Positions 27,685-58,020 of a stretch of DNA of 64,000 nucleotides are shown one piece after another. The translations under genes were made by a program, and so were the position numbers. The DNA comes from Dehalococcoidia bacterium (GTDB lineage Bacteria; Chloroflexota; Dehalococcoidia; UBA6926), in the NCBI GenBank assembly GCA_965207895.1, contig CBDBNN010000001.1, positions 182,312 through 246,311 on the forward strand. The letters are read 5' to 3'. Position 1 is the first letter of the stretch. Every line of letters starts with the position of its first letter. The notes below the pieces were generated by a model. That model saw only the letters and a list, made by a program, of their open reading frames with translations, did no database searches and had not been told where the DNA came from.

Positions 27685-28002
27685 CTAGGGGGTGGGGAAC
27701 GGGACGATGCCGCTGCGCAGCAGTGCGGCGACGGCCTTGGCCAGCAGCACCAGCACAAGGCCCACGACTGCCATGACCACTGCGGTCTTGGCCCTGCCGC
27801 CGCCACGCTCCTCCGCGCCCTCGGCCATCAGGACGAAGCCCGCCCAGACGACGGCGAAGACGGCGAGTCCGGCGGCGGCGTAGGCCATCGCGGTCAGCAC
27901 CGCGTCGAAGGCGGCCAGCATCGCCCGCTCCTCGGCCGGGGCCGCGCCGACGGTCGCCAACGCAGCCCCGGCAAGGAGGATTGCCGTCCATGCCCGTCTC
28001 AC
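27685..28002 (-). CDS. Small secreted two-helix membrane protein (VirB2/TrbC pilin-like, tentative)
   Basis: GTG start overlapping the upstream stop (GTGA). A signal-like N-terminus is followed by two hydrophobic helices. Location between the PrgI-like gene and VirB4. Confidence 0.4.
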   Translation of the reverse strand: MRRAWTAILLAGAALATVGAAPAEERAMLAAFDAVLTAMAYAAAGLAVFAVVWAGFVLMAEGAEERGGGRAKTAVVMAVVGLVLVLLAKAVAALLRSGIVPFPTP

Positions 28003-40600: not shown

Positions 40601-43600
40601 CGCTGGCGTCGACGGTGACCGTGACCGATCCGTCGGGCTCGTCCACCTCGTCGTTGGTGGTGGCCACCGTCAGCGTGGCGTAGCCCGCTGCCGGGATGGT
40701 CACCGTCCGATGTTCCATGGATATCCCGGAGTCGTCGCTCTGCGACACCGTGACGCTCACGTCCAGGTCCGCAGCCGGGGCCGGGTTGGCGCTGACCGTG
40801 AAGGTCGCGTCCCCGCCCTCGGTCACGTTGCCGTCGGCGGTCACGCTGATCAGCGGCACGGACGTGTTGGGCGCGGGCGTCTCGAAGTCCACCGTGAAGG
40901 TCTTCGGCGTCGCGCCGGCGGCCAGGGTCCGCACGGTGATCTTGTCCAGCTGGGTCGTCCCATGAAGGACGGAGACCACGTAGTGCGACTGCGGATTAAG
41001 GCCGGTGAGCTGGTGCTCGGTGGCGGTGGTCGTGACTTCCGTCAGGACCGGGACGCCCGTGAAGCTCTCGTGCCAGACGACCAGGTAGGACGCGCCGTCC
41101 CCCTGCGGCTTCCAGGCGACGGTCGCCGTGGTGTCGGAGACGCGCTTGAGCTGCACCGGCGGAGGCGGCGGGAGGTCGTTGTTGGCGATATAGACCGAGG
41201 CGTAGCTCCTGAACCTGTTCAGCCGGTAGCCCTCGCCGAACTGCACCGTCGCGCCGAGCATCCCGTTGGAGCCCCAACCGGTGTCGTCGACGGTGGGGAT
41301 GGTGAACGAGACGCTGCCGCCGGTGGGCACGTTGACCGTGCGCTCGCCCAGGTGCTGGGCGGCGACCACGGAGCCGGGGCCGGCCACGCCCACCCTGACG
41401 TCCAGCGGCGCGTCGGGCGCGGGGTTCACGGTGACCGTGTAGACCGCGTCCTCGCCCTCGGTGATGGTGCCGCCGGCGGCGCTGATCGACACCTCGGGCA
41501 CCCGCTCCACGATCACCGACGTGGGCTCCGCCTCCACGGGCGAGCCCGCCGCAAGCGTGGTGAAGCGGATCACCGGGCTGGCGGTGCTCAGCTGCGTCGC
41601 GCCGTGGTCCTGGTAGTAGACCACCGCCCGGTACTCGGTGTCCGGCTCCAGGTGGCGGATGTTCCAGGCCGGGTCGTTGGGCTCGGCCCCGAACCAGGCC
41701 TCGTCGGCCGGGACGCCGGGGAAGGGCGAGGTGGTGGACCAGTAGCGCACCTCGTAGCCCTCGGCGCCGACCACCTGCGGCCAGCTCAGGTCGATGCCCG
41801 TGTCGGACAGGTTGGCGTAGGTCAAATCGCCCACGCGCTCCACCACCGGGTCGGGCAGGTCGCCCAGCAGCCGCTGGCAGCCCACGCAGGAGCCCAGCGT
41901 GCGGTGGAAGCTGAAGCTGTCGGTGCGCACCGTCTTCGGCGGCGTCTCCGTGGAGATCTGGTTGTCGCTGCGCTCGTACAGCTTGTAGCCCTCGACCTGG
42001 AAGGTCACGTTGCCGACCACGTTGGCGCCGACGTGGATGTCGACCTGGACCGGCGTGCGGCCGACCGTGACCGAGCCGGCGCTGACGGCAGAGTCAGTTC
42101 TGAAGGTGTGCAGGTGCGAGGCGGCGGGGCTGGTGAACCAGACCCGGTGGGACCGGAAGTACTCCGACGTGCCGCTCCGCAACAGCGGCTTGGCGAAGTC
42201 GGCGCTGATGGAGAAGCGCTTGTCCTGGTCCGCCGGCGGGTCGTTCTTCGTCCGCACCCAGAAGTAGTGCGCCTTGCGCCCCGTGTTCAGCGAGGCCGGG
42301 AAGGCCAGATTGAGCCCGCCGTCCTCGATGGACGTCCAGGTGGTCCCGTCGTCGATGGAGAACTCCAGGGTCTGCTCCCACTCGTCGTCGTCCCTGATGA
42401 TGAGCGGCACCTGCACCTCGGGGTAGTCGAAGCCTTCCACCTGGTACAGCACGCCATTTTCATAGAAGTTGTGGCCGACGGCGTGGGGCCGGTGGATCAG
42501 GAACGTCCCGTGGTCGAAGGCGTCGCTGTCCTGGCCCGCGGCGAGGCTCACCGGACGCCACTTGTTGGCGTCGCTCTCGTAGACGGACTGCGACGAGAAG
42601 GGGCAGCCGTCGTGCCGGTCCAGCAGCGGGCCGGCGGTGCTGCCGTAGCCGAAATGAATCCCATCCCGGCCAAGCCCTTCGACGATGGGGTCGCCCAGGT
42701 TGTAGGGGCTTCTACTCCCGGTGTGGCACATCAGCCGGTCCCGGTCCGGTTTGCCCGGCCCGATGTAGCCGCCGTGGTGGCTGAGCGGCTCACCCACCTG
42801 GCTGGCGACGTAGAAGTGCCGGCGCTCGTGGGGGTCCACCGCCTGCCACTGGTAGGTCACCGCCGGGCCGCCCTCCGTCAGCGTGATGGTGGGCGGCGGG
42901 TCGTGCCTGTTGTAGTTGGCGATCACCCAGCCCGTGTCGCAGTCGTTGCCCGAGATCGTGCCCGCGCAGGTGCGGAACTGCACGAAGGCGTCGGCGGCCC
43001 CCAGGTTCAGGCCGATCTTGAGCGCCTCGGAGTGGGTGCTCCAGGAGACGGCGGGGTTGGGGTAGAGCGACCAGGAACTGTGGCCGTCGCCGATGCTCCA
43101 GCCCTCGGGCAGGCGCAGGCCCCGCAGGCGCTCGGAGTTCGACGCGGTGGCGCGAAGGGTGTACGTGCTGTTGGGCTGCACGGACGCGTCGTATACATAC
43201 ACCCAGTAGGTGGTGTTCGGCTCCAGCCGCAGCCCCGAACCGTCGTTGCCCTGGTAGGTGAAGGTGAAGGTCCGGTCGGCGCTGCCCACCGGCATGGAGG
43301 GGCGCGCCAGATCGGCCAGGACGTCGGCGGCGGTACTGCCCGGCGAGCCGCCGGAGCCGGCCCAGATCTGTACCCTCAGATCACGGGCGGCGTCGGAGTC
43401 GCCGATCTCGGCAAACTCGACGTCGACGCTGTTGAGGCGGTAGTGGCCGCCGTTCTTGCCCGTCGTGAACGACTGCGCGCGGTCACGTACGGTACTGGCA
43501 GCCGTCACGGTCAACGCCGCGCCGTCCGCCTGGCCCAGGTTGCTCATCACCGCCGGCTCACCGGGCGGCGCGTTCACCGGCGTGGGCTCCACCCGGAACA

Positions 43601-46445
43601 GGGGCGAGATGCCGTAGAAGGCGTGGTCCTGGGTGCTGGCGATGGTGTTGTAGCTGATGGGGCCGGTGTCCGCGTCGGTGGTCGAGAACCGTCCGCGCCG
43701 GGCGTTGCTGGCGCCCAGAGGGTTCGCCTCCTTCGCACCGTCGGTGCGGGTGCCGGTCCACGGCCAGTCGTTCGAGGTGCTCCTCTCGCCGCTCTCGAAG
43801 CGCCGGTCCGCCATCGCCCAGTTCTCCCAGGTGTCGGACCAGAAGCCGGCGTTGTTCGCCGCGACCCGCTCGCCGTTCAGCCACCAGACCTCCGCGTCCG
43901 TGTGCCCGGCGTTGTTGGGGTTGGTCCGGGTGTGGTCCCGGGCGTCCACCGCGGCGGTGGAGCCCACCACCCGGAAGTGATCGGCGTAGCGCCGGACGGC
44001 GGCGTGCCCGTCGCGGGCCGCCTCCCGCACGTGGGCGTCGTAGACGCCGATGTCGGCGGCGGTGGCGTCGCGGTGGTCTTCGGTCATGAACAGCAGCCGG
44101 AACGTCTCGCCCGCGCCCAGACCGAGCGGCTTCAGCGGCCAGTCCAGGGGCACGGTGTAGGAACCGTCCGCGTGGGGCAGCAGCCGGCCGTTGACTCCCA
44201 TCGACAGAGTGGAGCCGCCGACCAGGGTGATCCAGTTGCCGCCCCCCTGCGCGCGGATGCGAGCGTCGTTGTTGATGCTCCAGCCGGGCGCGGCGCCCTC
44301 GTCCTCGGAGTTGCTCTGCGTGAACTTCACCTGGCTGTTGCCTTCCGTGAGTCCGGCTGCGTCCAGCACGACCCAGTAGCGGGTGTCCGCCTCGAGCGCG
44401 ACGCCCGGGTGCGTGAAGCGGTACGTGCCGGCCTGCCGGTTCACGAAGGCGGGATTGGTCAGGGTCCCCACGACCGTGCCGGGAGCCCCGTTGGCACCTT
44501 TGTGGACGGTGACCGTCAGCTTGGAGCCGAAGTCCTCGGTGGACCGCCTGAAGGCCACGTCCACGCTGGTCAGGGTGTACCCCGAGGGGTTGCCGCCGGT
44601 GTCGAAACCCTGCGCCAGGTCCACGTGCAGGCCCTGCACCAGGCCGCTCGACTGGCCGGTGTTCTTCACCAGCGCCGGGTCGTCGTCCCGCACCCGGACC
44701 GTCGCCGTCCCCAGCGACGTGGCCAGGTCGTAGTCCGACCCGTCCACCAGCGTCACCGTGACCGAGCCGTGGGCTTCGTCCACGTCGTCGTTGGTGGTGG
44801 CGATCTCCAGCGTCGCCGACCCGCTGGCCGGAATGGTGACGCTGGTGGGCAGGGTCCCGTACCCGAAGTCCCCGGTCGTGGTCACCGTGACGCTCACCGG
44901 CAGGTCTGCCGGGGGCGCCGGGACCGCCGTCAGCGTGAAGCTGGCGCTGACGCCCTCGGTGACGGCGCCGCCGCCAAGGATGCTCACCCGCGACGGCCGC
45001 AGCTTGTTGCTCACCTGCACGGAGAAGCCGTTGGACGTCGCGTGCGGGTCCGCGCCGCCGCCGACATTGGTGCCGAGGCTGGAGGCGTCGAAGGCGGCGT
45101 TCGAGCCGAGCGCGATGGTGTAGGTCTCCGTGCTCTCCGTCGCGCCGTCGACCACCGGCGTCAGCTCCAGCGTCGCCGTCCGCGCGCCCGCGCCCGAGAA
45201 GCGCACCGTCGGCGTCGCCGTGCTCGTGCCCGAAAGCGTCACGCCGGCGTTGAGGCTCGTGCCGGTCTTCTTCGCAAGGCTCCAGTCGGAGGTGGTCACG
45301 CCCGTGCCGCCGATCGACAGCGGCACGTCGATGGTCTCGCCCGCAATCAGCGCGCGGCCCAAGGTCACCGTGAACTCCACCGTCCCGCCCTCCGACACCG
45401 CGCCGCTGCCGACGCGGGCGAGGGTGACGACCGTGGGGTCGTCGTCGTGGAGGGTGTAGGTGAAGCTATTGGCGCTGGTGTCGATGGAAACCCCGGCGGG
45501 GAGCGGATTGTCCGGATCCTCAGAGAGAGTCACCGAGATGACTTCGTTGGGCACGTCCCCGACACTGCCGACAGCAAAGCCACTAATGCCCCTCTCCGTG
45601 CTACCTGCTGAGACTGTTAGATCTGCGCAACCGTTTTCATCCAGTGTCAAAACTGTGTTTTGCAAATGCTCAAACTCGAGGCCAAGGGTTGGGCGGTTGC
45701 TTGTGATACATACTCTGAAGTAGGTAGCAGTTGCCAGGGCCGATGAGACTTCCACCCGAAAACTTCCAGCAGCTGCACCTGCACTTAATTCTTGTGTCAT
45801 CTGCGGGGTAGATAGTTCTACAGACATTGTTGCGGTCTTCACCACGCCACCGAGGCTGATTTTCGGGGTTGGCGTGTTGGTGAACCATGAGCCTGTCATA
45901 GCATGCGCTCTATACACCAAGCCGTTACCGATGCTCCAGCCGGCGAGGGCTCCGCTATCTTCGTTGTTCGAATTCGTGGCGCGAATACCCGACGTGGCGA
46001 GGTTACGGCTGAGATCCAACACAAGGAAGTATGTGGTGTTCGCCGACAGGTCTATGCCGGTGCTCGTGAAGGTCAGCGTCTGGTCCGAGCTGGAGACGGG
46101 AAAGCTGGCGGGCTTGGTCAGGGTCCCCAGCGAGCTGCCCGGAGACCCGCTGGATTCGGTGTGGATGGTGGCGGTGAGGTCCGAAGAGCTGAAGCTGCTG
46201 TGGATAATGCCAAATTCCACTCCGACGCTGGTCAGGCTGTAGCCCGCGGCGTTGCTGCCGGTGGTGAACGCCACGGCGTAATCGTTGCCAAGAGCTTGAT
46301 TGAATCCGTCTGCCTGACCGAGGTTGCTGACGAAGGTCTGCGTCGCCTGCTGCGCAGAGGCTGTTTCAGACCCTCCAGACAGCAGCACGAACAGCGCCGC
46401 CGCCAGCAGGGTCAACGTGAGGAAGGTTCTGGCGGGGCGCCTCAT
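37686..46445 (-). CDS. Giant secreted adhesin-like protein (2919 aa): signal peptide, three SNLGQxDG-type domains, FN3 domains and about 8 Calx-beta-like domains
   Basis: The ATG at 46445 gives MRRPARTFLTLTLLAAALFVLLSGGSETASA. FN3-like segments (YEVRYWS..., VAWKPQGDGASYLVVW...). Repeated about 109-aa units TEGGDATFTVTASPAPxxNLxVSVTVSQSGDYGA...TDDxxDETDGSVTATV. The C-terminal domain DYQYTEGELVFAPGVTELTAEVWLEYDDDEEPDEYFVVEAYL is a Calx-beta hallmark. Confidence 0.85.
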   Translation of the reverse strand: MRRPARTFLTLTLLAAALFVLLSGGSETASAQQATQTFVSNLGQADGFNQALGNDYAVAFTTGSNAAGYSLTSVGVEFGIIHSSFSSSDLTATIHTESSGSPGSSLGTLTKPASFPVSSSDQTLTFTSTGIDLSANTTYFLVLDLSRNLATSGIRATNSNNEDSGALAGWSIGNGLVYRAHAMTGSWFTNTPTPKISLGGVVKTATMSVELSTPQMTQELSAGAAAGSFRVEVSSALATATYFRVCITSNRPTLGLEFEHLQNTVLTLDENGCADLTVSAGSTERGISGFAVGSVGDVPNEVISVTLSEDPDNPLPAGVSIDTSANSFTYTLHDDDPTVVTLARVGSGAVSEGGTVEFTVTLGRALIAGETIDVPLSIGGTGVTTSDWSLAKKTGTSLNAGVTLSGTSTATPTVRFSGAGARTATLELTPVVDGATESTETYTIALGSNAAFDASSLGTNVGGGADPHATSNGFSVQVSNKLRPSRVSILGGGAVTEGVSASFTLTAVPAPPADLPVSVTVTTTGDFGYGTLPTSVTIPASGSATLEIATTNDDVDEAHGSVTVTLVDGSDYDLATSLGTATVRVRDDDPALVKNTGQSSGLVQGLHVDLAQGFDTGGNPSGYTLTSVDVAFRRSTEDFGSKLTVTVHKGANGAPGTVVGTLTNPAFVNRQAGTYRFTHPGVALEADTRYWVVLDAAGLTEGNSQVKFTQSNSEDEGAAPGWSINNDARIRAQGGGNWITLVGGSTLSMGVNGRLLPHADGSYTVPLDWPLKPLGLGAGETFRLLFMTEDHRDATAADIGVYDAHVREAARDGHAAVRRYADHFRVVGSTAAVDARDHTRTNPNNAGHTDAEVWWLNGERVAANNAGFWSDTWENWAMADRRFESGERSTSNDWPWTGTRTDGAKEANPLGASNARRGRFSTTDADTGPISYNTIASTQDHAFYGISPLFRVEPTPVNAPPGEPAVMSNLGQADGAALTVTAASTVRDRAQSFTTGKNGGHYRLNSVDVEFAEIGDSDAARDLRVQIWAGSGGSPGSTAADVLADLARPSMPVGSADRTFTFTYQGNDGSGLRLEPNTTYWVYVYDASVQPNSTYTLRATASNSERLRGLRLPEGWSIGDGHSSWSLYPNPAVSWSTHSEALKIGLNLGAADAFVQFRTCAGTISGNDCDTGWVIANYNRHDPPPTITLTEGGPAVTYQWQAVDPHERRHFYVASQVGEPLSHHGGYIGPGKPDRDRLMCHTGSRSPYNLGDPIVEGLGRDGIHFGYGSTAGPLLDRHDGCPFSSQSVYESDANKWRPVSLAAGQDSDAFDHGTFLIHRPHAVGHNFYENGVLYQVEGFDYPEVQVPLIIRDDDEWEQTLEFSIDDGTTWTSIEDGGLNLAFPASLNTGRKAHYFWVRTKNDPPADQDKRFSISADFAKPLLRSGTSEYFRSHRVWFTSPAASHLHTFRTDSAVSAGSVTVGRTPVQVDIHVGANVVGNVTFQVEGYKLYERSDNQISTETPPKTVRTDSFSFHRTLGSCVGCQRLLGDLPDPVVERVGDLTYANLSDTGIDLSWPQVVGAEGYEVRYWSTTSPFPGVPADEAWFGAEPNDPAWNIRHLEPDTEYRAVVYYQDHGATQLSTASPVIRFTTLAAGSPVEAEPTSVIVERVPEVSISAAGGTITEGEDAVYTVTVNPAPDAPLDVRVGVAGPGSVVAAQHLGERTVNVPTGGSVSFTIPTVDDTGWGSNGMLGATVQFGEGYRLNRFRSYASVYIANNDLPPPPPVQLKRVSDTTATVAWKPQGDGASYLVVWHESFTGVPVLTEVTTTATEHQLTGLNPQSHYVVSVLHGTTQLDKITVRTLAAGATPKTFTVDFETPAPNTSVPLISVTADGNVTEGGDATFTVSANPAPAADLDVSVTVSQSDDSGISMEHRTVTIPAAGYATLTVATTNDEVDEPDGSVTVTVDASANLDYRVSSSQGTAVVVVSDDDGGYTVNQGTIARVKELASQTQHGAAHVNRWNRVLLAFGEHDGTGVTGGPMTAAEAQDMADNHSSPVWDLVVVELTALEAAAAQTPPPPTPEVSVTAGSGVTEGGDAVFTVTASPAPTANLDVSVTVSQSGDYGATTGQRTVTIPTTGSVTITVGTTDDSTDETDGSVTATVNAGSGYTVSSSQGAATVAVSDNDDASTPVVSVTGGGGITEGGDVTFTVTASPAPASNLAVSLTVSQSGDYGATTGQRTVTIPTSGSATVTITTTDDDVDETDGSVTLTVNAGSGYTVSSSQGAATVGVADNDDPVVEEQTGYTVDPDVIAKVRELASQTQHGTAHVNRWNRVLLAFGEHDGAGVTGGPMTASEAQEMANRHSSPVWDEVVTELTALEAAAAQTPPPPTPEVSVTAGSGITEGGDATFTVTASPAPASNLDVSVTVSQSGDYGAATGKRTVTIPTTGSVTLTVGTTDDTTDETDGSVTATVNAGSGYTVSSSQGAATVAVADNDAAPTPEVSVTAGSGITEGGDATFTVTASPAPTANLDVSVTVSQSGDYGATTGRRTVTIPTTGSVTLTVGTTDDDADETDGSVTATVNAGSGYTVSSTQGAATVGVADNDDAPTPVVSVTAGSGVTEGGDATFTVTASPAPASNLAVSVTVSQSGDYGATTGQRTVTIPTTGSVTLTIGTTDDTTDETDGSVTATVNAGSGYTVSSTQGAATVAVSDNDDAPTPVVSVTAGSGVTEGGDAIFTVTASPAPAANLAVSVTVSQSGDYGATTGQRTVTVPTTGSVTLTVGTTDDDADETDGSVTATVNAGSGYTVSSSQGAATVGVADNDDAAPEVEITVTVEAASAVEGDVLEFRVRLSEASTEEIRIRWNTAPAYHLLDDRAHMTDYQYTEGELVFAPGVTELTAEVWLEYDDDEEPDEYFVVEAYLPGTLYPPDAVGTMTIIDDD
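38040..40850. repeat. Near-identical tandem coding repeats (about 327-bp unit x6-7) plus a duplicated about 260-bp insert inside the adhesin gene
   Basis: Protein-level repeats are more than 90% identical. The second repeat family (GYTVxPDVIAKVRELASQTQHG.AHVNRWNRVLLAFGEHDG...AAAAQTPPPP) occurs at about 39345-39614 and 40269-40523. Confidence 0.7.
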
Positions 46446-46468
46446 GAGAGAGAACCCCCACGAAATGC

Positions 46469-46478
46469 GGGGGGGGGG
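46469..46478. repeat. Homopolymeric G10 (C10 on the coding strand) 24-33 nt upstream of the adhesin start codon
   Basis: Sequence ...atgcGGGGGGGGGGtgaagc. On the minus strand this reads CCCCCCCCCC-gcatttcgt-GGGGG-ttctctctc-ATG. Confidence 0.6.
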
Positions 46479-46748
46479 TGAAGCTCCGCAGCGCATCAGT
46501 CATGTCGTCGAACCTCCTGTGTCGCCCGACTTATGCCGCGACGCCGTGCGGGCGCTGGATCAGTAGTATTTCTAGCTCATGTCAATATGTGTCGCAAACG
46601 ACCAGCAGATATCATCCGCCAATCTGGGGTTCGTTGTCAATGGGGTCCGGGTTGGATTGGGGACGGAAAGGGAGGGCGGAGCGCAGCAACATACCGTGTG
46701 GGGACTGGCGGACAAGGGCGACTTGGCGAGACCCCTCGGAGGCAGTCG

Positions 46749-47123
46749 TTACTGTGGCGTAGCCTGGATGAGGACGCGTCCGCCTCGCTGGACCCGGATA
46801 TTCAGGTCGTGGCCATCCAGCAGCCTCATGCCGACCAGTGGAGTGGAATCGGCGGCGCTGGCCCTGGTGTTCCGCAGGCTGTCGTCCCACAGCACGGCGA
46901 CGTCATAGACATCGAAGAAAGCTTCGCTACCGTCGGCCAGAATTGCACGGCTTCGGTCCCGATAGGCCAAGCCCAACTCCCTCACCAGGTCTGAGGGCAG
47001 GGTCAGGAAGCCATTGTATCCCGTGTCTATTACGGCTTTGACTTCCCGTGACCGGCCCGTCGGCCCTTGCACTGTAAGGCCGACGACGGCTTCGTAGGCG
47101 GTGTTCACCGTTCCATGGATCAC
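46749..47123 (-). CDS. Retropepsin-like (clan AA) aspartic protease
   Basis: AVIDTGYNGFLTLP is the D-T/S-G active-site context. 124 aa. The start overlaps the upstream gene stop by 4 nt. Confidence 0.65.
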   Translation of the reverse strand: MIHGTVNTAYEAVVGLTVQGPTGRSREVKAVIDTGYNGFLTLPSDLVRELGLAYRDRSRAILADGSEAFFDVYDVAVLWDDSLRNTRASAADSTPLVGMRLLDGHDLNIRVQRGGRVLIQATPQ

Positions 47124-47437
47124 TCAGTCCTCCGCAGCGATCCGCCCCCAAAGCTGTAGAGCGCCCTATAGCCGACCCGCAGGCACCAAACGTCATAGGC
47201 GTCGGGCCGCTGGGATTGCAGCCGGTCCGTAGCGGCAATCTCGTCCGCTCCAATAGCCCAGCTTCCGCTCTCCACATCTATGGCGACGACCTCTCCAACA
47301 TGGTCCTCCTCGACCTGCCGCCGGATGTCTCGCTCGTATATCTGGTCGCCCAACCGCGCCGTCTCTTCTTTAGGACGGCTCGGCGGTGTCGTGGGCTTGG
47401 CGCGCTGGCTGGGTACCGAAGTCTCTGCGTCTCTCAT
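47120..47437 (-). CDS. Small conserved partner protein of clan-AA protease (DUF-type, tentative)
   Basis: The ATG at 47437 follows GGGAGGAGG. Carries a ...VVAIDVESGSWAIGADEIAATDRL...PDAYDVWCLRVGYRALYSFGG motif. Translationally coupled to the protease gene. Confidence 0.55.
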   Translation of the reverse strand: MRDAETSVPSQRAKPTTPPSRPKEETARLGDQIYERDIRRQVEEDHVGEVVAIDVESGSWAIGADEIAATDRLQSQRPDAYDVWCLRVGYRALYSFGGGSLRRTE

Positions 47438-47693
47438 GCCTCCTCCCTTCAATGAGCGTTCCCTCGTTCCTAATTCTACCACTCTGCGGGAGATCCGGAC
47501 AGCCAGAAGGGGCGGTGCCACAGGGGAAGACAGACCAACCAGCTATGGCCTATACTGCGAGCCTACAGACTTCCCAGTCGCATCTCGAAAACGGTTCTGC
47601 CTACCGTCAAAATAGGCCCACCAGAATCGGCAAGTTCTTGATCCAATTGTGCGTCACCGTTTGAACCACCTGTGTAACCACTAGGAGGGTGAC

Positions 47694-48617
47694 ATGACTG
47701 CTCTTGTCCGTCAGTTCAGATTCTTCCTAAGAGATGAAGTCAACCCAAATATTGACAGGGTGCGCAGGCTGCGCTCAGGCATTAGAGGAGTTAGAGATCA
47801 CCTGCACAGAAATCTTGATGGTTTTCAAGGTATCGCTCGACAGGGCTCATTGGGCTTGGACACTTTAATCAAGCCCGTCCGGGAAGATGACGAGTACGAC
47901 GCTGATGTTCAAGTCGTCATGAACCCACAGGCCAATTGGAATCCGAGGCAATACTTGGATGCTGTATTTGAAACACTGTCGACGAGCCTAGACTATCAAG
48001 ACAAACTGGAATGCAACACACGGAGCGTGACCATCAAGTTTGCCGGGCACTTCAGTATGGATGTCGTTCCGCGTATCACCCAAGATGGCCAGCACCAAGT
48101 CTGCAATCGCAGAGATAACAGATTTGAATCAACCGATGGTATGGGCTATCACAACTGGTTCCACGAGAAGAGCAAGTTGACCAACGTCAACCTCAAGCGT
48201 GCCGTCCGGCTGTTAAAGTACATCCGCGATCGTGAGAGCAATTACAAAGCTCCGTCCATATTGCTTACAACCTTGGCGGCAAACGCCATACAGTCTGGTG
48301 ATCGTGGCAGAGACTCTGTAAAGTCAGTCGCAAGCACATTGACCACGATCCTTACAAGGATGGACAGCTATTTGCAGGGGCTCCCACGAAAACCCGCCGT
48401 CAGGAATCCTGTACTACGCTCCGAGACGTTCGACCGCCATTGGAATGATGTCCAGTTTGCGATATACAGGGAGAACATTCACCGATATGCCGAGATTGCT
48501 ACAGGAGCCTTTGCCAGTTCTTCTGTCCCGGAATCAATTGATCGTTGGAGGAGGCTCTTCGGCGAAGGTTTTGGAGGGCATTACAAGGCACCGCCTCATA
48601 GTAAGCAAAGGGTTTAA
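47694..48617 (+). CDS. SMODS / CD-NTase-like nucleotidyltransferase
   Basis: AGGAGGG RBS. Carries the nucleotidyltransferase-fold motifs QGSLGLDT (GS) ... DDEYDADVQVV (h[DE]h) ... FSMDVVP (third acidic). 307 aa with a SMODS-like C-terminal helical region (RLLKYIRD..PSILLTTL). Confidence 0.6.
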   Translation: MTALVRQFRFFLRDEVNPNIDRVRRLRSGIRGVRDHLHRNLDGFQGIARQGSLGLDTLIKPVREDDEYDADVQVVMNPQANWNPRQYLDAVFETLSTSLDYQDKLECNTRSVTIKFAGHFSMDVVPRITQDGQHQVCNRRDNRFESTDGMGYHNWFHEKSKLTNVNLKRAVRLLKYIRDRESNYKAPSILLTTLAANAIQSGDRGRDSVKSVASTLTTILTRMDSYLQGLPRKPAVRNPVLRSETFDRHWNDVQFAIYRENIHRYAEIATGAFASSSVPESIDRWRRLFGEGFGGHYKAPPHSKQRV

Positions 48618-48660
48618 GCAACGTCCCGAGGATGAATCTGAGCCCTCGGTGGCGTCACTT

Positions 48661-49575
48661 TCACCAATGCCGTCGCCGACGAAGGCGTGCGGCTGAGTAC
48701 GAAAGTCTGATGGAACCAATAGCGAAACGGCTGCGGCGGGCACGCAGCACTGGGGACGGGAGATCTCCGTAATTCCGCAGAAAACGCGCTAGCGGCTCTG
48801 AGACTACGCTGCTGAACACAACGCCGACCATGACAGCAAGCACCACAGACCAATCGTCGCCACCCGGAATTGCCCGGGGTACCCATATAGCAAGAACCAT
48901 CATCGGAGAGAACAGGAACAGCATTCCAAAACTCTCCATAAGCGGGCCGAGTGTAGGATGCTTAGGCCATATTTCAACGCCTTTGAACAGCACCCACACC
49001 AATAAAGTCCATGACGCGAGCAGGGCGGACACGGCAGTCAACGGAATGAGGGTGTAATGCAACTCCCATCCGCCCATGAGCCCTGGAAGAACCCAATACA
49101 TCATCAACAGGATTCCCGCCGGCACCATGCCGATTGCCAATATCCTCTTACTTCGTATTAGTATCCAAAATATGAACAACCATGGAGCGGACACTATAAT
49201 CACGACTATGTTGATCCCCAACTCATGGAAGTCGTACGTGTTGCTAATCGCCAAGAGCGTGAAGAGTCCCAGGAAAAAGGCGATTCCAGCTTGCCACGGA
49301 TCCACTTGCCACCAATTGAGCGGTGGGACTCCATCTTCTTGCTGCATCGCCTGGTAGAACGCCACGAAAGGAAGAACCGCAAGAAGAAGATTCATCACAA
49401 CGCTGTCATACATCCTGTCTACGTAGTCAAACCCCCAAATGAAGTAGGTCGCTATCGCCAGACTAAGTAACGCAATCAGGAAGTTGACTGTGACTCCCTT
49501 ACGGAGGTCCTTCAATGGGTAATGGCGGGCTTTTGAGCTCACGTCTCGAGCACGACGCATCAGGGATCGCATCAA
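48661..49575 (-). CDS. Polytopic membrane protein (about 8 TM), hypothetical
   Basis: 304 aa and highly hydrophobic. Convergent with the NTase gene across a 44-nt gap. Confidence 0.55.
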   Translation of the reverse strand: MMRSLMRRARDVSSKARHYPLKDLRKGVTVNFLIALLSLAIATYFIWGFDYVDRMYDSVVMNLLLAVLPFVAFYQAMQQEDGVPPLNWWQVDPWQAGIAFFLGLFTLLAISNTYDFHELGINIVVIIVSAPWLFIFWILIRSKRILAIGMVPAGILLMMYWVLPGLMGGWELHYTLIPLTAVSALLASWTLLVWVLFKGVEIWPKHPTLGPLMESFGMLFLFSPMMVLAIWVPRAIPGGDDWSVVLAVMVGVVFSSVVSEPLARFLRNYGDLPSPVLRARRSRFAIGSIRLSYSAARLRRRRHW

Positions 49576-49615: not shown

Positions 49616-52597
49616 TTACTTCTCCAAAAACATGGTCACGTAGTCGGCGTCGACGTTTGGCATGGTGAAGCCGTACTGCGAAATAGCCTCGGTGAACTTG
49701 CTGATGTCGTAGACGCTGGTGTCCGACAGGTACGGCTCTACGGAGTCCAGTGAGCGGAGCAGCATCTTCAATTCCAGGTCGTCGTCGCGGTCGGCCGCTT
49801 CCTGCAGTCTCGACTTCCATTCCGCCAACGGAGCGCGTTCCGTGATGTGTCTGTTGCGTTCCATGAGGCCGAAGACCTCGTCTGCGGGTATCGGATCCTG
49901 ATGGACCACGTTGTAGACCCTCCCGAGGTGATTCGAATCATCAGCGATCTTGCTGATTGCGGAAACGAGGAAGTCTACGGGTGTCATCTCGAAATTCCAA
50001 TCCGGCGCGTGGGGCGCGCTACCCAGGCGAGCGCAGGCCTTTAGGATCAGGAGGAGGAAGTCATTGGGATTGCCCGTACCCGTGCGGCTATGGTGACCGA
50101 TGTTGCCGGGCCGATACATGCAGACCGGCAGTCCTCGCGAGACGGAATGCCAGACCAGCCGCTCCGCAACCCACTTGGACTGGTTGTAACCGCCTTCCAT
50201 CCGGTCCACCCACGAATCGATTTCATTGTTCTCCAGGTATGGAGTGGTGTCACCGCCGGGAAAAACCCCGTTGGATGAGATGTACTGCAGCGTCTTTGGC
50301 TTGCCGGTCGTGGCGAATCTGAGCACTTCCGTCGTGCCGCCGACGGTGTGGGGCTTGGACGCCGAATATGGATAGACGTAGTTGACAGAGGCGGCGCAAT
50401 GGAAGATAAGGTCAATCTTTCCTGCCAACTCGTTGTATTTGTCGCCGCCCAGTCCCATTAGCGGCTGAGTGAGGTCGCCTGAGACAGTGATGATCCGATC
50501 ACCCGCAGCCTGGCTGGGCAGTCCATAGAATTTCAGCGTCTCCAGCACCCGACCAGACGGCCCGCCCTCTCCGGCGTCGCCGTCGCGTGCCAGACAGTAG
50601 AACGTCGTATCCGCCCTCGTGGATTGCACCAGCTGATCGAGCAGGAATGCCCCAAGGAATCCGGTCGTTCCGGTGATCAGGATCGAGGATGCTTCGCTCA
50701 ACCGCATAGGTGTGGCGTCGCCTCGCGGCGCAATCTCCGGGTCCAGCTTGGCGTCCTGAGCCAATGCCGCGCCGGATGCTGCTCCCCCTGCCCCGCCGTT
50801 TTCGAGATATGCCGCCAGTTCACCGATGGTTGGATATTCGTACACCTCAACGCCGCTCAGTTCTCTTCCGAATGTCTCCTCTATGGCAATCGTGAGCGAC
50901 ATGCCTGCCAAAGAGTGGCCGCCAAGGTCAAAGAAATTCCAGTCGTCCTCCAGGTCATCAAGGTTGAGCTCCAGCGTGTCGGCCCACAGTTCTCGCAGGA
51001 CTGCGCGTCTCTCTGCTGCTGTGGCATGTTCAGCCAGTCGTGTTCGTCGCTTGTCTGGCGATGCTCCATTGCGCAGTGACGGTAAGGCTTTTCGTTGCAG
51101 CTTGCCGGTCTGCTGATTGATGGGAAGGGCGTCCAGTTCAATGAAGTGAGAAGGGACGGAATAGAGAGGCAGGTATCGTTCCAGTAGGTTTCTCAGGTCT
51201 CTGCTCGCTCCGCTCCGGGCGTCCAGTTTCCAGGCAGCATTCTGGCCCCGAACCACATAGGCAACCAACCGTTTGCTGGTCTCATCCAGGTTTTCAACGA
51301 CGACGGCCGCATCCGCGGCGTCGCAGTGTCGGCGCAGCATCTCTTCAATCGCGCCGAGATACACGGTGTATCCCCTGATCTTGACCATGGAATCAGTCCG
51401 ACCCACGATCGTCGTCATGCCGTCAGCCGTAACTTCTGCAAGATCGCCGGTTGCGTAGTACCGCTCGTCATCCAGCGTGACGAACCTCTCGGCATCCAGA
51501 TCAGGCCTCTTGAGGTAGCCCCGTGCCACCCCTTGACCGCCGATGAGCAACTCCCCTACACCACTCGTCTTCACGGCGGAGCCGTCCTCCGGGCGCACGC
51601 GGAGTTCGACGCCGTCCATCGCATAACCCACCGGGCACGTGTCCATCCCATCCAGCGACAGTTCCGTCAGGTCAATGGTGCAGACATCATGGGTTTCACT
51701 GATGCTGTAGGTATTCAGCAGGCGGGCGCCTGGCGGCAGGACATCCCGGGCTTGCCTGAGCAGGCTGGCAGGAACGACCTCCCCATTCAGCCAGACGACG
51801 CGCAAGGACGACATCTGTTGCCGGAGCTGTTCATGCTCTCCGGAGTTCAGGACGCTCTGCAGCAGGGACGGCGTGAACAGGATCTCGGATAGCCGGTGCT
51901 CCGAAATGAACCGGGCAAGTGAGCGCGGAACGAAGATGACGTCATCGGAGATGACATAGACCGTGCCGCCCTTCAGCAGCGGCCGCAGGAACTCCCACGG
52001 AAAGAAGATGTTGCAGCCGACCCTGTCTCCAACGCCGTATGAACTGTACGTATACCTGGCGTCGTAGGAGGACATCATGGCTCTCAAACTCAGCATCACG
52101 CCTTTCGGATCACCGGTGGTGCCGGAGGTATAGGGGATGAATGCAAGATCATCGCTGTCGACGTGTGTCGCATGGTTTCCTGCCCCGTACTCCTGCCATG
52201 AGTGGTCACTATCAATGGGAAGTATCCGGGTGTCGCTGAACTCGGTCAGTTTCGGCAGGAATCGCTCTTTGGTAAGCACAACCTTTGGCTGCGCCTCAGC
52301 CACGATGCCGCGCAGCAGGGGTTCGGGCGAGTCAACGGCCATGGGCATGAATGCCCCGCCGGCCTTTAGCGTTGCAATGGCGCTGACGATGTATTCGGAG
52401 CACGTATCCATGAATATGCCCACGGGCTCATCGGTCCCAATGCCACAGCTTTGAAGCCAGCCACCCAGGGCGTCCGCCGATCGGTTCAACTCTGCGTACG
52501 TCATCTGCCCATCGCCGAATACGATTGCAGCAGCATCCGGGGTGATTTCAACTTGCGTTTCAAATAATTGATGGACGCTGGATTCTACTAAAACCAT
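49616..52597 (-). CDS. NRPS-like carboxylate reductase: adenylation - PCP - thioester reductase (A-T-R)
   Basis: A-domain cores (YTSGTTGDPKGV; YATGDL; KIRGYTVYLGAIE), PCP core FFDLGGHSLAGMSL and R-domain LITGTTGFLGAFLL plus a later catalytic Y...K region. The start is most likely the ATG at 52597 after GGGGAAG; the track used a GTG at 52612. Confidence 0.85.
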   Translation of the reverse strand: MVLVESSVHQLFETQVEITPDAAAIVFGDGQMTYAELNRSADALGGWLQSCGIGTDEPVGIFMDTCSEYIVSAIATLKAGGAFMPMAVDSPEPLLRGIVAEAQPKVVLTKERFLPKLTEFSDTRILPIDSDHSWQEYGAGNHATHVDSDDLAFIPYTSGTTGDPKGVMLSLRAMMSSYDARYTYSSYGVGDRVGCNIFFPWEFLRPLLKGGTVYVISDDVIFVPRSLARFISEHRLSEILFTPSLLQSVLNSGEHEQLRQQMSSLRVVWLNGEVVPASLLRQARDVLPPGARLLNTYSISETHDVCTIDLTELSLDGMDTCPVGYAMDGVELRVRPEDGSAVKTSGVGELLIGGQGVARGYLKRPDLDAERFVTLDDERYYATGDLAEVTADGMTTIVGRTDSMVKIRGYTVYLGAIEEMLRRHCDAADAAVVVENLDETSKRLVAYVVRGQNAAWKLDARSGASRDLRNLLERYLPLYSVPSHFIELDALPINQQTGKLQRKALPSLRNGASPDKRRTRLAEHATAAERRAVLRELWADTLELNLDDLEDDWNFFDLGGHSLAGMSLTIAIEETFGRELSGVEVYEYPTIGELAAYLENGGAGGAASGAALAQDAKLDPEIAPRGDATPMRLSEASSILITGTTGFLGAFLLDQLVQSTRADTTFYCLARDGDAGEGGPSGRVLETLKFYGLPSQAAGDRIITVSGDLTQPLMGLGGDKYNELAGKIDLIFHCAASVNYVYPYSASKPHTVGGTTEVLRFATTGKPKTLQYISSNGVFPGGDTTPYLENNEIDSWVDRMEGGYNQSKWVAERLVWHSVSRGLPVCMYRPGNIGHHSRTGTGNPNDFLLLILKACARLGSAPHAPDWNFEMTPVDFLVSAISKIADDSNHLGRVYNVVHQDPIPADEVFGLMERNRHITERAPLAEWKSRLQEAADRDDDLELKMLLRSLDSVEPYLSDTSVYDISKFTEAISQYGFTMPNVDADYVTMFLEK

Positions 52598-52769
52598 CCT
52601 GACTTCCCCCACACCCCAGACCTGATCACTTACGGAACAGGTAACCGTTAAATCAGCTAAATGTTGATGGTCGATTTTACAGGAACGTTAAAGCAATGTA
52701 AAATCAAGTGGTGGCTTCACGCCGTTGGCCTCGTCGGATGTCTCACCTGAATGGAAGGGATGGTCGTAT

Positions 52770-53459
52770 ATGCAGTTTGAGTCATTGGAGTTTTACAGGG
52801 AGCATGGCAAGCGATACTCCCAAATGTCTCATGAATTCTCACATTCACAATACGCTGAGATATCTCATCCCAGGCTGACAGGCGATATGGCTCTGCTGAA
52901 TCGCGCAACTGACCTGGCGTCCGGCAAGCGCAGCCTGGATGCCGGATGCGGTGCCGGGGCCCGAGACGTGGCCCTGCTCCACTCCCGGGGTTTTGATGCG
53001 TACGGCATTGACGCCGTAGAAGAGAACATTGATCTCGGCAAGAAGTTGCACCCGGAAATCGCCCACAAAATCAGTGTTGCCGACCTCCGAGAGCCCTTGC
53101 AATTCGACTCGGAGTATTTTGATCTTGTCCTTTGCAATGCCGTCATCCAGCATCTAACACCGGAGGACGTTGAGTCTACAACGATTCCGGAGTTTTCCAG
53201 GGTCCTGGCTCCCGGAGGCGTCTTACAGCTGATGTTCAAGGTCGGATCCGGCATCGCAGAGGTGAGCGACCCAGCGTTCGGGAACGATGGTGTGGACAGG
53301 CTATTCCAGCTCTATGAAGAGCGGCACCTGCTGAGCATCCTTGACGAGTCCGGCTGTTCTCTCATTGAGGAGGAAGGCAGCGACAAGCTTGGCGGCCTGT
53401 TGTACTTCACCGACCACAAGCCGATGCGCTATTGCGTCTTCTGGGCAAGAAAGAACTAG
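52770..53459 (+). CDS. Class I SAM-dependent methyltransferase
   Basis: Motif I LDAGCGAGARD and a post-I acidic residue. The start is reassigned to the ATG at 52770 after GGAAGGGA; the track ORF begins at a TTG. Confidence 0.75.
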   Translation: MQFESLEFYREHGKRYSQMSHEFSHSQYAEISHPRLTGDMALLNRATDLASGKRSLDAGCGAGARDVALLHSRGFDAYGIDAVEENIDLGKKLHPEIAHKISVADLREPLQFDSEYFDLVLCNAVIQHLTPEDVESTTIPEFSRVLAPGGVLQLMFKVGSGIAEVSDPAFGNDGVDRLFQLYEERHLLSILDESGCSLIEEEGSDKLGGLLYFTDHKPMRYCVFWARKN

Positions 53460-53471
53460 AACCGCTGCCCT

Positions 53472-54635
53472 CTAGATCTGCAGGGGCTGCGCCTCGACAG
53501 ACGCGGCGGTCTTCTGGACATCGCTGACCGGCACTTCTGCAATTCCTGTCATACTGCACTTGAGCCCCGCATAGGCGGCGGCGAATCGTCCGATTTCCTC
53601 CAGTGACCAACCTGCCCACAGCCCATACATGATGCCGGCTGAGCAGGCTGCGCCCGCTCCATTGCCGTCCACGACATCCACTTGCGGAGGCCTGACGAGA
53701 TATGCCTCGTCACCCTGCGCAACTACACACCCGTCAGCGCCCAGGGTCACGACCGCCATGTCCACCCCGCGGTCAATCAGGCTGCGGGCGATATCGGACG
53801 GATCACCGGATGCTTCGGGGATATCCAGGGAAACCTGACAGATGGTTGCTTCTTTTATCATGTCGGTGATCCACGATTCACCGTTGTATTGGGATTCCAG
53901 GTTGAGATAAACGGGCACGTCCTGAGAAACGGCGTCCCGCACGGCATGGACGACGCTTGGGCCATCATACCAATCGACGTAGAGCAGTCCCGCGTTGCTA
54001 AGCTGCGAGGGATCGGGCGGCCTCAGCTCTGCCATGGAGGCGGAATCTCTTCGCTGAAAATAGGTTCGGCCCCCGTCGGGGTCAATGATCGACACTTCGA
54101 ACGGAGTCGGCCACCCGTCTTTGATGTCCTGCTGGACATTCACACCCCATGCGTCGAGATGTTCCCTGACCCTCTCTCCACGACTGTCATTTCCGGTCGG
54201 TGAGGTGATGAGCCGCGTCGGAACGTTCCAGCTAGTCAGGATGCTTGCAGCGATGGCGGCATCATCGCCCAGGGATTCCATTGAGTCCAGGATTGGCGCG
54301 CCGCCATTGTGCTCAGGCAGCTCGTCAACCTTGAGTAGAAGGCAGTGAGTCAAGAGGCCAAAGCAGACCACGTCTCCCTTGCCAACATCCGCCGGAAGTC
54401 GATTGCCGTTCGCGTGCGTACCGTTTTTCATCATGGCTATTGCTGCTTCCCCCAGTTGCTCCCACCTGAATCCAGATGTCGAAAAAAACGAGAATCGCTT
54501 ATCAGGGAGCAAGCTTCCGCCGATGTTAACGCACTTAACAAAGAATGTCCATTCAGGTGATGTCACCCGTCTTGAGAAGCGCCAGTGTTCTGTTAGGATG
54601 GCCGCAATCGCGATTGACGCGTGATTGTCACTCAC
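53472..54635 (-). CDS. FHA-like domain fused to PfkB/ribokinase-family sugar kinase
   Basis: The N-terminus has KNGTHANGNRL...GDVVCFG, the FHA C-terminal motif. The C-terminus is PfkB-like with DVVDGNGAGAACSAG, where the canonical DTxGAGD has the last Asp replaced. GTG start without an obvious RBS. Confidence 0.65.
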   Translation of the reverse strand: MSDNHASIAIAAILTEHWRFSRRVTSPEWTFFVKCVNIGGSLLPDKRFSFFSTSGFRWEQLGEAAIAMMKNGTHANGNRLPADVGKGDVVCFGLLTHCLLLKVDELPEHNGGAPILDSMESLGDDAAIAASILTSWNVPTRLITSPTGNDSRGERVREHLDAWGVNVQQDIKDGWPTPFEVSIIDPDGGRTYFQRRDSASMAELRPPDPSQLSNAGLLYVDWYDGPSVVHAVRDAVSQDVPVYLNLESQYNGESWITDMIKEATICQVSLDIPEASGDPSDIARSLIDRGVDMAVVTLGADGCVVAQGDEAYLVRPPQVDVVDGNGAGAACSAGIMYGLWAGWSLEEIGRFAAAYAGLKCSMTGIAEVPVSDVQKTAASVEAQPLQI

Positions 54636-55073: not shown

Positions 55074-56214
55074 TTACCCAGCTACCTTGGCACAAACTGC
55101 GTAGACGGTGAGGGTCCAGTTGCCAGAGACCGCGTTCACCTCAGTGGCGCTTGCGACCCATCCTGTAGGAACGCCACCAAGCTGTCCCGCCGGGCGGGAT
55201 TCAGTTACGGCTACGCCCCCGTCAGAGGACTCCACCAGCGCGCCACCGGAGATTGCAGAGAAGCCTGTGCCAACCGAAGAGCACAGTACGGTTTCGGACT
55301 TACTGGCGTCACTGTTCGATGAGCTTTGCGATCGCGCGATTCGAAGGTCGGATACTCCGGGCTCGCCTTGCTCACCCTGCGGACCATGCGGTCCTGCTGC
55401 TCCTGTTGCTCCCGTCGCACCGCGTTGTCCTGCCTCACCTTGCGGGCCTCGTTGTCCTTCCGCCCCTTGGGGTCCTATAGGTCCTGCTTGCCCTTGAGGC
55501 CCTTCGGGTCCCGTTTGGCCTTGATCGCCCTGCAGACCTCGTGGTCCTTCGGGTCCGGTTGGGCCTGTCGGCCCTTGCGGGCCTTCCGGTCCTGTAGCTC
55601 CGGCTGGTCCGACCAATCCTTGTGGGCCCCTATCACCCTGGATGCCTTGTGGGCCTTGTGGGCCTGCCTCACCCTGTGCGCCACGAGGTCCGAGAGGTCC
55701 CTGAGAACCTGCTGGTCCCGGGTCTCCCTTCGGACCTTCAGGCCCGCCTGCAGGTCCCATAGGTCCTACCTGGCCCTGTGGTCCTGGAACGCCCTGAGGT
55801 CCTTGCACGCCTTGCGGCCCAGCGGGTCCTACCCCGCCTTGAGGTCCTTGCACGCCCTGCGGTCCTGTCTCACCCTGGGGTCCTTCGGGTCCTGTCGCAC
55901 CAGTGTCGCCCTGCGGACCTGGAGGACCACCGGGATCCCCCTGAGGTCCTTGAGGTCCTGTCGCTCCTGCGGGTCCTGCCGGTCCTGCCGCACCCTGGGG
56001 TCCTGCCGGTCCGGGGTCGCCTTGCGGTCCTGCCACGCCCTGCGGTCCTGCCGCTCCTGCCGGTCCTGCCGCTCCTTGAGCCCCTTCAGCACCTTCGCAT
56101 GCAGCGGCTGCAAGGATCATGACTATCGCTAGGGCCGAGATAGCCGCGATCAACACCCACTTCCGCACGGGCTCAATCGATTTCACATACTTAGACAAGG
56201 CTGGCATCGTCATT
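55074..56214 (-). CDS. Collagen-like triple-helix repeat protein with N-terminal TM anchor and C-terminal globular domain
   Basis: The ATG at 56214 follows GAAAGGA. TM segment [20 protein letters not shown], then about 80 uninterrupted GXY triplets ([16 protein letters not shown]...), then a roughly 100-aa Ser/Thr-rich tail. Confidence 0.8.
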
Positions 56215-56587
56215 CCTTTCACCTCACCCCAACGCTCTGTTTCAATCCTCAAGCGAAATACCATGAATGTCAAGAACCTTGCTCGACTATCTATGCCTTC
56301 GCAATGAAGGAGTCGGACTCACGCGGCGCGCGGGCTCACAGCCTTCTTGAGTCGCATCGCATTTTTGACAGCGTGCCCTGCTTGCCGGAGGCGCTCTCAC
56401 TCAGAATACCAGCAATCTCACTTCCTTGACACCCCTATCGACACCCCTATCCGACTCCTGCTCTCTGCGTTTTTTCATCCAAATCGAACCAGCAAAGGAA
56501 CCAGGAAACCGATCATTGCCCTGAACCTGTCCCTCCCCCCGTACACCGAGCCCGGACGTGGACTTCACATAGAAGTGCCCTGCGTCG

Positions 56588-57727
56588 TCAGTAGATTCCG
56601 GGCATAATGCGCCATTTGACGCGGGACTTGTATTCGGCCCATTTCTCGGCGCCATACTTCTCCTCGCAGTGCGTCTCATCGCTGCGCTGCCGCCACGTGA
56701 AGAATGACACGACGAAGACGAAGTACGCCCACGCCCAGGGGTTCAGGAAGTGGCCAAATGAGAGGCCGACGGCAAAGGACAGGAACCCCTCACCCATGTA
56801 GTTGAAGTGGCGGGCCACGCCCCAGAGGCCCGTGTAGAGTATCTTACGATCGCCCGCCTGGATGTACTTCGGTTCGATAATCCCGAGGAACTTGCGATCC
56901 GGCCACCTTTTAAAGGTGTATTTCTGGAGGTTGGCACCGCGTCCGATGCTCCAGCCCAGCAGGAAGAGCGCCGTGGAGCCGATGAGCCAAACATAGGTCC
57001 AGAAATCGGAGAAGCCGGGGTGCGGGTGCGCGGCCATCCCCCACAGCGGCAGGATGAAGACCCAGCCGTAGATGACGATGCCGCCCCAGAACATCTTGAA
57101 TCCCATCCGTTCATAGATCAGATCGTAGGTGTAGAGCTGGACGCGCTCCCAGATGAAGTAGTCAAAGACGTAGAACGTGAAGAACGCGGCATAAAGGAAG
57201 ACGCCGGGGTTGAAATCGCTTCCAAATTGGTCGTAGTGCCACGCTGCGCCAGACATGGCGTTGAGCGATAACATGGTTCCGCCGACAACGTAGAAATACA
57301 TCTTGATATCGACGCGCTCGCCAAAGAGGGATATCTCCTGCGCCCGACCTTCCCATAGCGCAAGCAGTGGGTTCTTTATGTCTCCCTGTGGCTGGCTGTA
57401 GACCGCCGCGATGGACATGATGAGAGTGAAGACGGTGCCGCCGGCGATCGCATATAAGGAAGATCGATAGAACCAGTCACGCGGCATGCCTGTAATCTCA
57501 GTCGCCCAGATTGCGACGGCAACGAGGAAAACGAGGATGCCGTTCAGTCGGTAGTTGCGTGGCTGGCCGGTTTCCGGGTTGATGACGTACCCGGGTACTT
57601 TTCTGCCGGGCAGAATCAACTGAGCTAAGAGGAAGGCGGCAAAGATGGCAAGGGGCGTGAAGAACCCCGCAATCGCCTCGGCGCCTGAAAGCTCGAAGAG
57701 GTGCTCGATACCAAGCCATTCAATCAT
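56588..57727 (-). CDS. Sterol reductase family protein (ERG4/ERG24 / 7-dehydrocholesterol reductase-like)
   Basis: C-terminal LYTGLWGVARHFNYMGEGF ... WRQRSDETHCEEKYGAEKWAEYKSRVKWRIMPGIY matches the sterol-reductase C-terminal signature. Polytopic. The start is the ATG at 57727 after GGAGAGAGGGG. Confidence 0.7.
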   Translation of the reverse strand: MIEWLGIEHLFELSGAEAIAGFFTPLAIFAAFLLAQLILPGRKVPGYVINPETGQPRNYRLNGILVFLVAVAIWATEITGMPRDWFYRSSLYAIAGGTVFTLIMSIAAVYSQPQGDIKNPLLALWEGRAQEISLFGERVDIKMYFYVVGGTMLSLNAMSGAAWHYDQFGSDFNPGVFLYAAFFTFYVFDYFIWERVQLYTYDLIYERMGFKMFWGGIVIYGWVFILPLWGMAAHPHPGFSDFWTYVWLIGSTALFLLGWSIGRGANLQKYTFKRWPDRKFLGIIEPKYIQAGDRKILYTGLWGVARHFNYMGEGFLSFAVGLSFGHFLNPWAWAYFVFVVSFFTWRQRSDETHCEEKYGAEKWAEYKSRVKWRIMPGIY

Positions 57728-58020
57728 GACGGAATACCCCTCTCTCCGATGACGAGGCAATTATGGATTCAGGCTTGGTGGAAATTCAAGAAGGCGATTC
57801 CGTATCTCAACAGGATGGCGGTTTCCAGGGACCAGCGGTGCCCTACAGAATCAAGAAAATCATCGTCCGCTCCAAATAGCACGTATCCTTTCTCAAAGTA
57901 AGCGGGGAGGATGAGCCCTGTGGCAACGCCGCCTGAGTCATTCAGTAAACGCCATCGGGCACAAAGGCAGCGAGGACTCTAGTGCATTTGTCGCCGACGA
58001 AGCTGCGCATATTACGCAGC

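Follow-up and report, generated by a model that had tools for sequence, protein, structure and literature searches.

The subject of this analysis is a gene for a nucleotidyltransferase of the cGAS/DncV-like kind (CD-NTase; the cyclase, below) in a 64,000-nt stretch (the window) of contig CBDBNN010000001.1 from a Dehalococcoidia bacterium. The cyclase gene (47694-48617, plus strand) is an intact, stand-alone open reading frame (ORF) of 307 aa, and it converges with an ORF of 304 aa (48661-49575, minus strand) whose product has eight transmembrane (TM) segments. It had been predicted from the sequence that the cyclase is a SMODS/CD-NTase second-messenger synthase without a co-directional effector gene, and that the 8-TM gene is its nearest neighbour. 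The convergent arrangement stands; the spacing, given as 44 nt, is 43 nt between the stop codons. The ORF map contains no same-strand neighbour of the cyclase, there being a divergent gene pair on its 5' side and the convergent TM gene on its 3' side, and none of its neighbours was matched by a PADLOC effector model. The cyclase is thus an orphan, as had been proposed.

The cyclase ORF was matched by the PADLOC cyclase model PDLC00793 over residues 3-297 (E=6e-90). In Pfam, the proposed SMODS search gave 85.6 bits against a cutoff of 26.5 (E=5.7e-24), DncV-like_NTFase also exceeded its cutoff, and NCBIfam CBASS (cyclic oligonucleotide-based antiphage signalling system) cyclase models matched partially. 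When a cyclase-family profile was compared with the PDB, the relatives retrieved were exclusively CD-NTases, with 9SA4 as the best match (E=4.6e-20, residues 5-298, i.e., the full length) and CdnG, CdnD and CdnC also matched, although sequence identity to the solved enzymes is low. In both the PADLOC and the PDB profile comparisons the homology extends through the C-terminal helical lobe, and in a family alignment of 33 sequences the columns of the catalytic residues G51-S52, D69-A-D71 (the DxD motif) and D123 are invariant. A total of 496 homologues could be detected, nearly all of ca. 300 aa and from metagenome-assembled genomes of Chloroflexota/Dehalococcoidia. Judged by its sequence, the product of 47694-48617 is unambiguously assigned as a genuine full-length CD-NTase, i.e., a SMODS second-messenger synthase, and this part of the original prediction is confirmed.

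CapV and the related cyclases

A minimal type I CBASS consists of a CD-NTase and a Cap effector, and CapV is present in more than 20% of CBASS operons (PMC12480259). Related Dehalococcoidia cyclases were sampled at 78 distinct genomic loci with 10-kb flanks, and patatin genes were sought there by tblastn. In 70 loci, a patatin gene directly precedes the cyclase gene on the same strand; in six it lies just downstream, and in three none was detectable. At a stricter threshold (E<=1e-20) patatin was present in 74 of the 78, with the plain two-gene capV-cdn order in 66. Nearly always, the patatin gene lies on the strand of the cyclase, typically 17-25 nt upstream of it, and in all three of the closest relatives (76%, 73% and 73% identity) it ends 17-19 nt before the cyclase start. 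The relatives' patatins match the PADLOC CBASS phospholipase effector model PDLC00757 over their full length (E=2e-109). With CapV beside the cyclase in 74-76 of the 78 related loci, depending on the count, the lineage is an effector-linked one, and we conclude from gene order that linkage to CapV is near-universal in this cyclase family. The classic example of CapV, paired with DncV in Vibrio cholerae, comes from a four-gene type II operon.

At the window locus this partner is absent. No patatin was detected across the 64 kb by tblastn with nine diverse patatin queries at E<=50, and there is no Cap effector gene in the cyclase operon. The likeness to type I CBASS with CapV is therefore incomplete: the window cyclase is a bona fide CD-NTase, its relatives stand in two-gene capV-cdn operons and the cassette is found on a mobile element, but capV is missing from the window, and with it the defining cyclase-effector pair. 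Directly upstream of the cyclase (47635-47693, plus strand) lies a conserved ribosome-binding site (RBS; GGAGGGTG) accompanied by a weak candidate relic of the capV 3' end. The RBS and the start codon align with those of three related loci (L085, L086 and L002), and a DNA profile covering the 250 nt that precede the cyclase gene in 15 relatives matches 47635-47691 co-linearly (profile positions 191-246), which is suggestive of a remnant of capV. A protein-level match found by eye (RSGQPEG...FLIQ) was not accepted, since the patatin tblastn search and a CapV C-terminal hidden Markov model (HMM) gave only noise.

In the place that capV occupies in the relatives, the window carries the divergent pair. 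Its first gene is a 133-aa ORF (47120-47521, minus strand) with no match in Pfam, PADLOC, NCBIfam or PHROGs and no assigned function; the second, which overlaps it by 4 nt, encodes a 124-aa clan AA aspartic protease (46749-47123, minus strand; NCBIfam TIGR03698, E=2.7e-16, above the cutoff). The layout of the two resembles that of a toxin-antitoxin pair. Homologous pairs (ca. 35% identity) are also present ca. 4-5 kb upstream of capV-cdn in L030 (4162-4814), L036-L038 and L043.

Among the related loci, L011 (9400-10900) contains a second stand-alone cyclase, before which the 3' end of capV has left a significant relic (E=6.3e-7) and which adjoins a restriction-modification (R-M) methylase/specificity fusion, and L062 (650-2527) contains only fragments of patatin. 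These two cases indicate that effector loss recurs in this cyclase family.

Two variant architectures were seen in the same sample. In L041, L047, L050, L055 (ca. 7907-13500) and L079 (7934-10930), the cyclase is fused to a ca. 690-aa N-terminal STAND-type AAA_16 ATPase with a winged helix-turn-helix and a TPR region, the whole forming a single stop-free ORF of 982-1026 aa. The CD-NTase seems here to carry a STAND sensor of its own. In all of these loci except L079, the fusion gene is followed by a gene for a CapP-like M78 peptidase, with CapV downstream; in L079, CapV was not detected within 10 kb. In L012, L026, L028, L061 and L071, the cyclase ORFs are 559-576 aa long owing to a C-terminal extension of ca. 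260 aa, which in L071 matches the PADLOC E2 model (E=2e-20). A SEC-C zinc motif closes the extension in L026 and L071, the two of the five that were scanned, and L026 is without patatin. By these matches, the extended proteins are predicted to be cyclase-E2 fusions of the short type II CBASS kind.

The 8-TM protein and the mobile element

The known membrane effectors of CBASS are 1TM, 2TM, S4TM and SLATT proteins (PMC12480259). The 8-TM protein had been put forward as the only adjacent effector candidate. Its eight TM segments are seen both in Kyte-Doolittle hydropathy and in an AlphaFold2 model (mean pLDDT 70.6). The protein had no match in Pfam, NCBIfam, PHROGs or PADLOC; the suggested comparison with SLATT-type and other TM effectors returned no PADLOC match at E<=1, and a Foldseek search of the PDB with the same model gave nothing significant (best E=0.79). 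The family comprises 114 close homologues and 169 clusters at 50% identity among 1.84e9 representatives, and a scan of metagenome contigs yielded three loci. No Pfam domains were found in its longer members (P0279, P0299 and others).

None of the 78 cyclase loci contains a member of the TM family, and no CD-NTase is present in the nine other places where the family was found (eight distinct contexts, as L087 and L088 are near-identical). The setting is usually an element of the integrative conjugative type. In L087 and L088, genes for a type IV secretion system (T4SS) pilin, VirB4, TrwB, a relaxase and an SspD-like PAPS reductase precede the TM gene, and genes for YhcG, a transposase and a recombinase come after it. 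Three loci, L089 (5900-11326), L090 (7782-11935) and L091 (7775-10774), share a module in which genes for RusA and an AHJR-like nuclease, the TM gene, and genes for an RHH protein and a large serine recombinase are combined; it is located at the integrase end of mobile elements of Dehalococcoidia. The TM gene stands with IstB and helix-turn-helix (HTH) genes in L080, and in a restriction-modification-like block in L092; L083 is the ninth place, with neighbours that were not annotated. In L081 (6335-7918) it is found among toxin-antitoxin genes, with Mrr and an anti-Pycsar-like MBL hydrolase nearby, and a PF06042 (NTP_transf_6) nucleotidyltransferase gene lies directly upstream, 58 nt away on the same strand. 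A general pairing of the TM family with nucleotidyltransferases, which L081 might suggest, was rejected, as it was not repeated in the other contexts and the PF06042 nucleotidyltransferase had no PADLOC match. A distant 8-TM paralogue (27% identity, E=2e-18) was noted in L091 (1655-2467), on the same element as the canonical copy.

The only likeness of the window protein to the known membrane effectors (1TM, 2TM, S-4TM, SLATT) is thus that a gene for a polytopic membrane protein lies beside a cyclase; it differs from them in having eight TM segments, no match to an effector profile, a position on the opposite strand and no co-occurrence with cyclases. Because the two families do not co-occur in either direction and no effector model is matched, the 8-TM gene appears to be independent of the cyclase. 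We conclude that its product is, by sequence and context, to be regarded as uncharacterised mobile-element cargo, neither a CBASS effector nor a housekeeping transporter. The family could serve element maintenance, exclusion or defence. A convergent 316-aa ORF located 34 nt past the cyclase of L086 was considered as a parallel arrangement and dismissed, since it encodes a soluble HExxH protein that is unrelated and has an HTH gene as its partner.

Upstream of the cyclase, the window carries, all on the minus strand and identified by Pfam, genes for a large serine recombinase (17762-19438), a Replic_Relax relaxase (21203-22864), a TrwB-like coupling protein (22861-25113) and a VirB4/TraC ATPase (25410-27806). 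Recombinase, relaxase, coupling protein and VirB4 ATPase, the set expected of an integrative and conjugative element (ICE), are therefore all present in one block, 17762-27806. The backbone is related to elements carrying either of the two genes of interest. On the TM side, it is 64-85% identical to that of L087, and the serine recombinase is 77-78% identical to those of the TM-carrying elements L089 and L090; on the side of intact capV-cdn, L085 adjoins a recombinase 59% identical to that of the window, and L086 adjoins a relaxase and a TrwB that are 47% and 61% identical, respectively, to the window proteins. The window backbone is thus homologous to serine-recombinase/Replic_Relax/VirB4/TrwB ICEs of Chloroflexota (Dehalococcoidia); the window cyclase and TM gene lie inside the element or just beyond its end. 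From these comparisons, one ICE family would carry the capV-cdn cassette and the TM gene as recurrent cargo, each independently of the other, and here the two lie tail to tail.

The low local GC content, which had been taken as a sign of horizontal acquisition, is real (50.1% in the cyclase and 53.0% in the TM gene versus ca. 59% in the flanks and 67% in the 17.7-46.5 kb block) and is the minimum of the window. The same property is seen across both families: the mean GC of cyclase genes is 55.4% and that of their flanks 60.8%, with the gene below the flanks in 93% of 72 loci, and TM-family genes have 48-52% against 58-63%. Since low GC is a trait of each gene family in its own right, it is not evidence of joint or recent acquisition here. 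The ICE backbone in the window is the better indication of a horizontal origin.

Probable effector loss and competing explanations

We conclude, with a probability of roughly 0.78, that a two-gene type I CBASS (capV-cdn), putatively ICE cargo, has decayed at this locus through the loss of capV, with the cyclase left intact. The original prediction had left the choice between a non-canonical arrangement and a remnant. The remnant is favoured, as capV is absent here and present in 74 of 78 relatives; an arrangement with a TM effector finds no parallel in the sampled loci. In the scenario we propose, capV-cdn cassettes would travel as cargo on a serine-recombinase/T4SS ICE family in Dehalococcoidia. 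The cyclase of an intact cassette would sense infection and make a cyclic (oligo)nucleotide, which would activate CapV, leading to degradation of membrane phospholipids and abortion of the infection (CapV mechanism as in PMC12480259). At the window locus, capV would have been removed by a deletion or replacement whose end would lie at least ca. 60 nt upstream of the cyclase start, with the conserved RBS left behind and the cyclase brought next to the divergent small-ORF/aspartic-protease pair. The 8-TM gene would be independent cargo of the same ICE family with no part in signalling. A locus so arranged, having no cognate effector in cis, is most likely unable to execute defence, even though its cyclase ORF is intact. 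Because an effector gene was looked for in the operon and is not there, the locus falls outside the definition of CBASS.

Several observations weigh against this conclusion. The DNA profile matches the presumed relic weakly, with E=1 when all of the window is searched and E=0.015 when the search is restricted to 1.5 kb, and at the protein level an HMM of the C-terminal 80 aa of CapV, run against the six-frame translation of the window, gave noise only. The cyclase bears no sign of decay: catalytic and family-invariant residues are kept and its nonsynonymous divergence (dN) is ordinary, a state that fits recent loss and continued selection (with an effector elsewhere) alike. The search for an effector acting in trans covered 64 kb of a 432-kb contig, and the source is a metagenome assembly, which leaves local misassembly formally possible.

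The condition of the cyclase speaks for a split rather than a broken system, in which a still functional cyclase signals in trans to an effector encoded elsewhere, e.g., the CapV of a second CBASS locus. There is a single private change at an otherwise invariant site, and it is conservative (C111S; siblings have 0-3 such changes); mean identity to an outgroup set is 0.565, within the 0.535-0.582 of the siblings; and dN between the cyclase and its relatives is 0.19-0.20, compared to 0.19-0.23 among the capV-linked relatives themselves (dS is saturated, making dN/dS uninformative). The upstream relic is more diverged (56-59% identity) than the same stretch among the relatives (69-71%), which, if the relic is real, hints at some period of constraint on the cyclase after the loss, but this comparison spans only ca. 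55 nt. A weak promoter-like site lies at 47527-47556, but the number of such sites (four versus 1.8+/-1.2 expected) is within chance. No effector was found in the 64 kb, the best 120 homologues include no second cyclase of the same 432,032-bp contig, and CBASS components are almost always co-operonic, both in this family and generally (PMC12480259). We therefore regard signalling in trans as unlikely. Somewhat less likely again is a bolder version, in which selection keeps the orphan cyclase as a sensor of infection and its signal is received in trans by an unlinked effector or, least likely of all, by the 8-TM ICE protein, making the locus a naturally split CBASS on a conjugative element.

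That the 8-TM protein is itself a new CBASS membrane effector, arranged non-canonically tail to tail with its cyclase, is very improbable. The two genes are adjacent (43 nt) and share a low GC content, membrane proteins are the commonest class of CBASS effectors (PMC12480259), and the family is an uncharacterised one found among defence-like genes on mobile elements. Yet the TM gene occurs in none of the 78 cyclase loci and no cyclase occurs in its other contexts, where its recurrent partners are RusA, the AHJR-like nuclease and the serine recombinase. Moreover, it lies on the opposite strand, where the NRPS-like gene described below precedes it by 40 nt; neither a PADLOC effector model nor a known fold matches it, and low GC is intrinsic to each family independently. 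Hardly more credible is an artefactual junction in a chimeric or collapsed contig, with capV present in the real genome: the contig is indeed metagenome-assembled, but the gene order is clean, the ORFs on both sides are intact, the repeats at the junction are short, at chance level and unable to drive a collapse, and orphan or decayed copies occur independently in other assemblies (L011 and L062). Least of all do we credit a non-signalling nucleotidyltransferase, such as the antitoxin of a minimal nucleotidyltransferase system. Such proteins share with the cyclase the Pol-beta nucleotidyltransferase core only, whereas all Pfam, PADLOC, NCBIfam and PDB matches of the cyclase are CD-NTases and extend over its full length, including the C-terminal helical domain, which refutes the antitoxin assignment. 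Its Pfam matches are to SMODS and DncV-like only, and there is no HEPN neighbour. The combination named beforehand as contrary to the prediction, best matches to minimal nucleotidyltransferases together with a housekeeping transporter, is thus not what the locus holds; the matches are to CD-NTases and the membrane protein is apparently mobile-element cargo.

The comparison reveals a large, Dehalococcoidia-specific capV-cdn family that rides one ICE family, in which effector loss appears to recur at a rate of a few percent and the cyclase can stay intact after its effector has been lost. The locus also calls for caution, in that a lone CD-NTase beside a membrane protein mimics a non-canonical CBASS, and comparative context turns it into an effector-less remnant next to unrelated mobile-element cargo. 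These points can help to calibrate defence-system finders and to trace the decay of abortive-infection systems, in which it is safe for the toxic effector to be lost before the rest. A literature search on orphan CD-NTases and patatin found no papers.

Other genes of the window

Between the conjugation module and the cyclase lies an ORF for a giant, repetitive surface-type protein of 2936 aa (37686-46496, minus strand; GC 70-73%), with a Pfam fn3 match (E=1.6e-12) and a Calx-beta match below the cutoff. The ICE-like region as a whole (17762-46496) has a GC content of 66-73% versus 59% in its flanks, and it also contains a 385-aa multi-HTH regulator (35401-36558).

On the other side, 40 nt upstream of the TM gene and on the same strand, is a gene for a non-ribosomal peptide synthetase (NRPS)-like A-T-R protein of 998 aa (49616-52612, minus strand), made up of adenylation, carrier and thioester reductase domains (Pfam AMP-binding, PP-binding and NAD_binding_4; NCBIfam thioester-reductase domain). 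It had no PADLOC match. Within 49616-54635, it adjoins genes for a class I S-adenosylmethionine methyltransferase and a PfkB-family kinase. The NRPS-like gene recurs at 69% identity ca. 8 kb from CBASS in L031 (18973-20862), and the methyltransferase at 50% identity ca. 7.5 kb from CBASS in L027 (17450-18148), which suggests a loose shared synteny or a common integration region. A conserved linkage of the NRPS-like and TM genes was rejected, as the 997-aa gene of L080 does not encode the NRPS-like protein.

Past 58 kb, the ORF calls lack Pfam matches and show an unusual distribution of GC over the codon positions. The 55074-57760 interval encodes a 399-aa protein with collagen triple-helix repeats (Pfam Collagen, E=5e-37) and a 390-aa membrane protein of the ERG4/ERG24 family (sterol-reductase-like/DUF1295).

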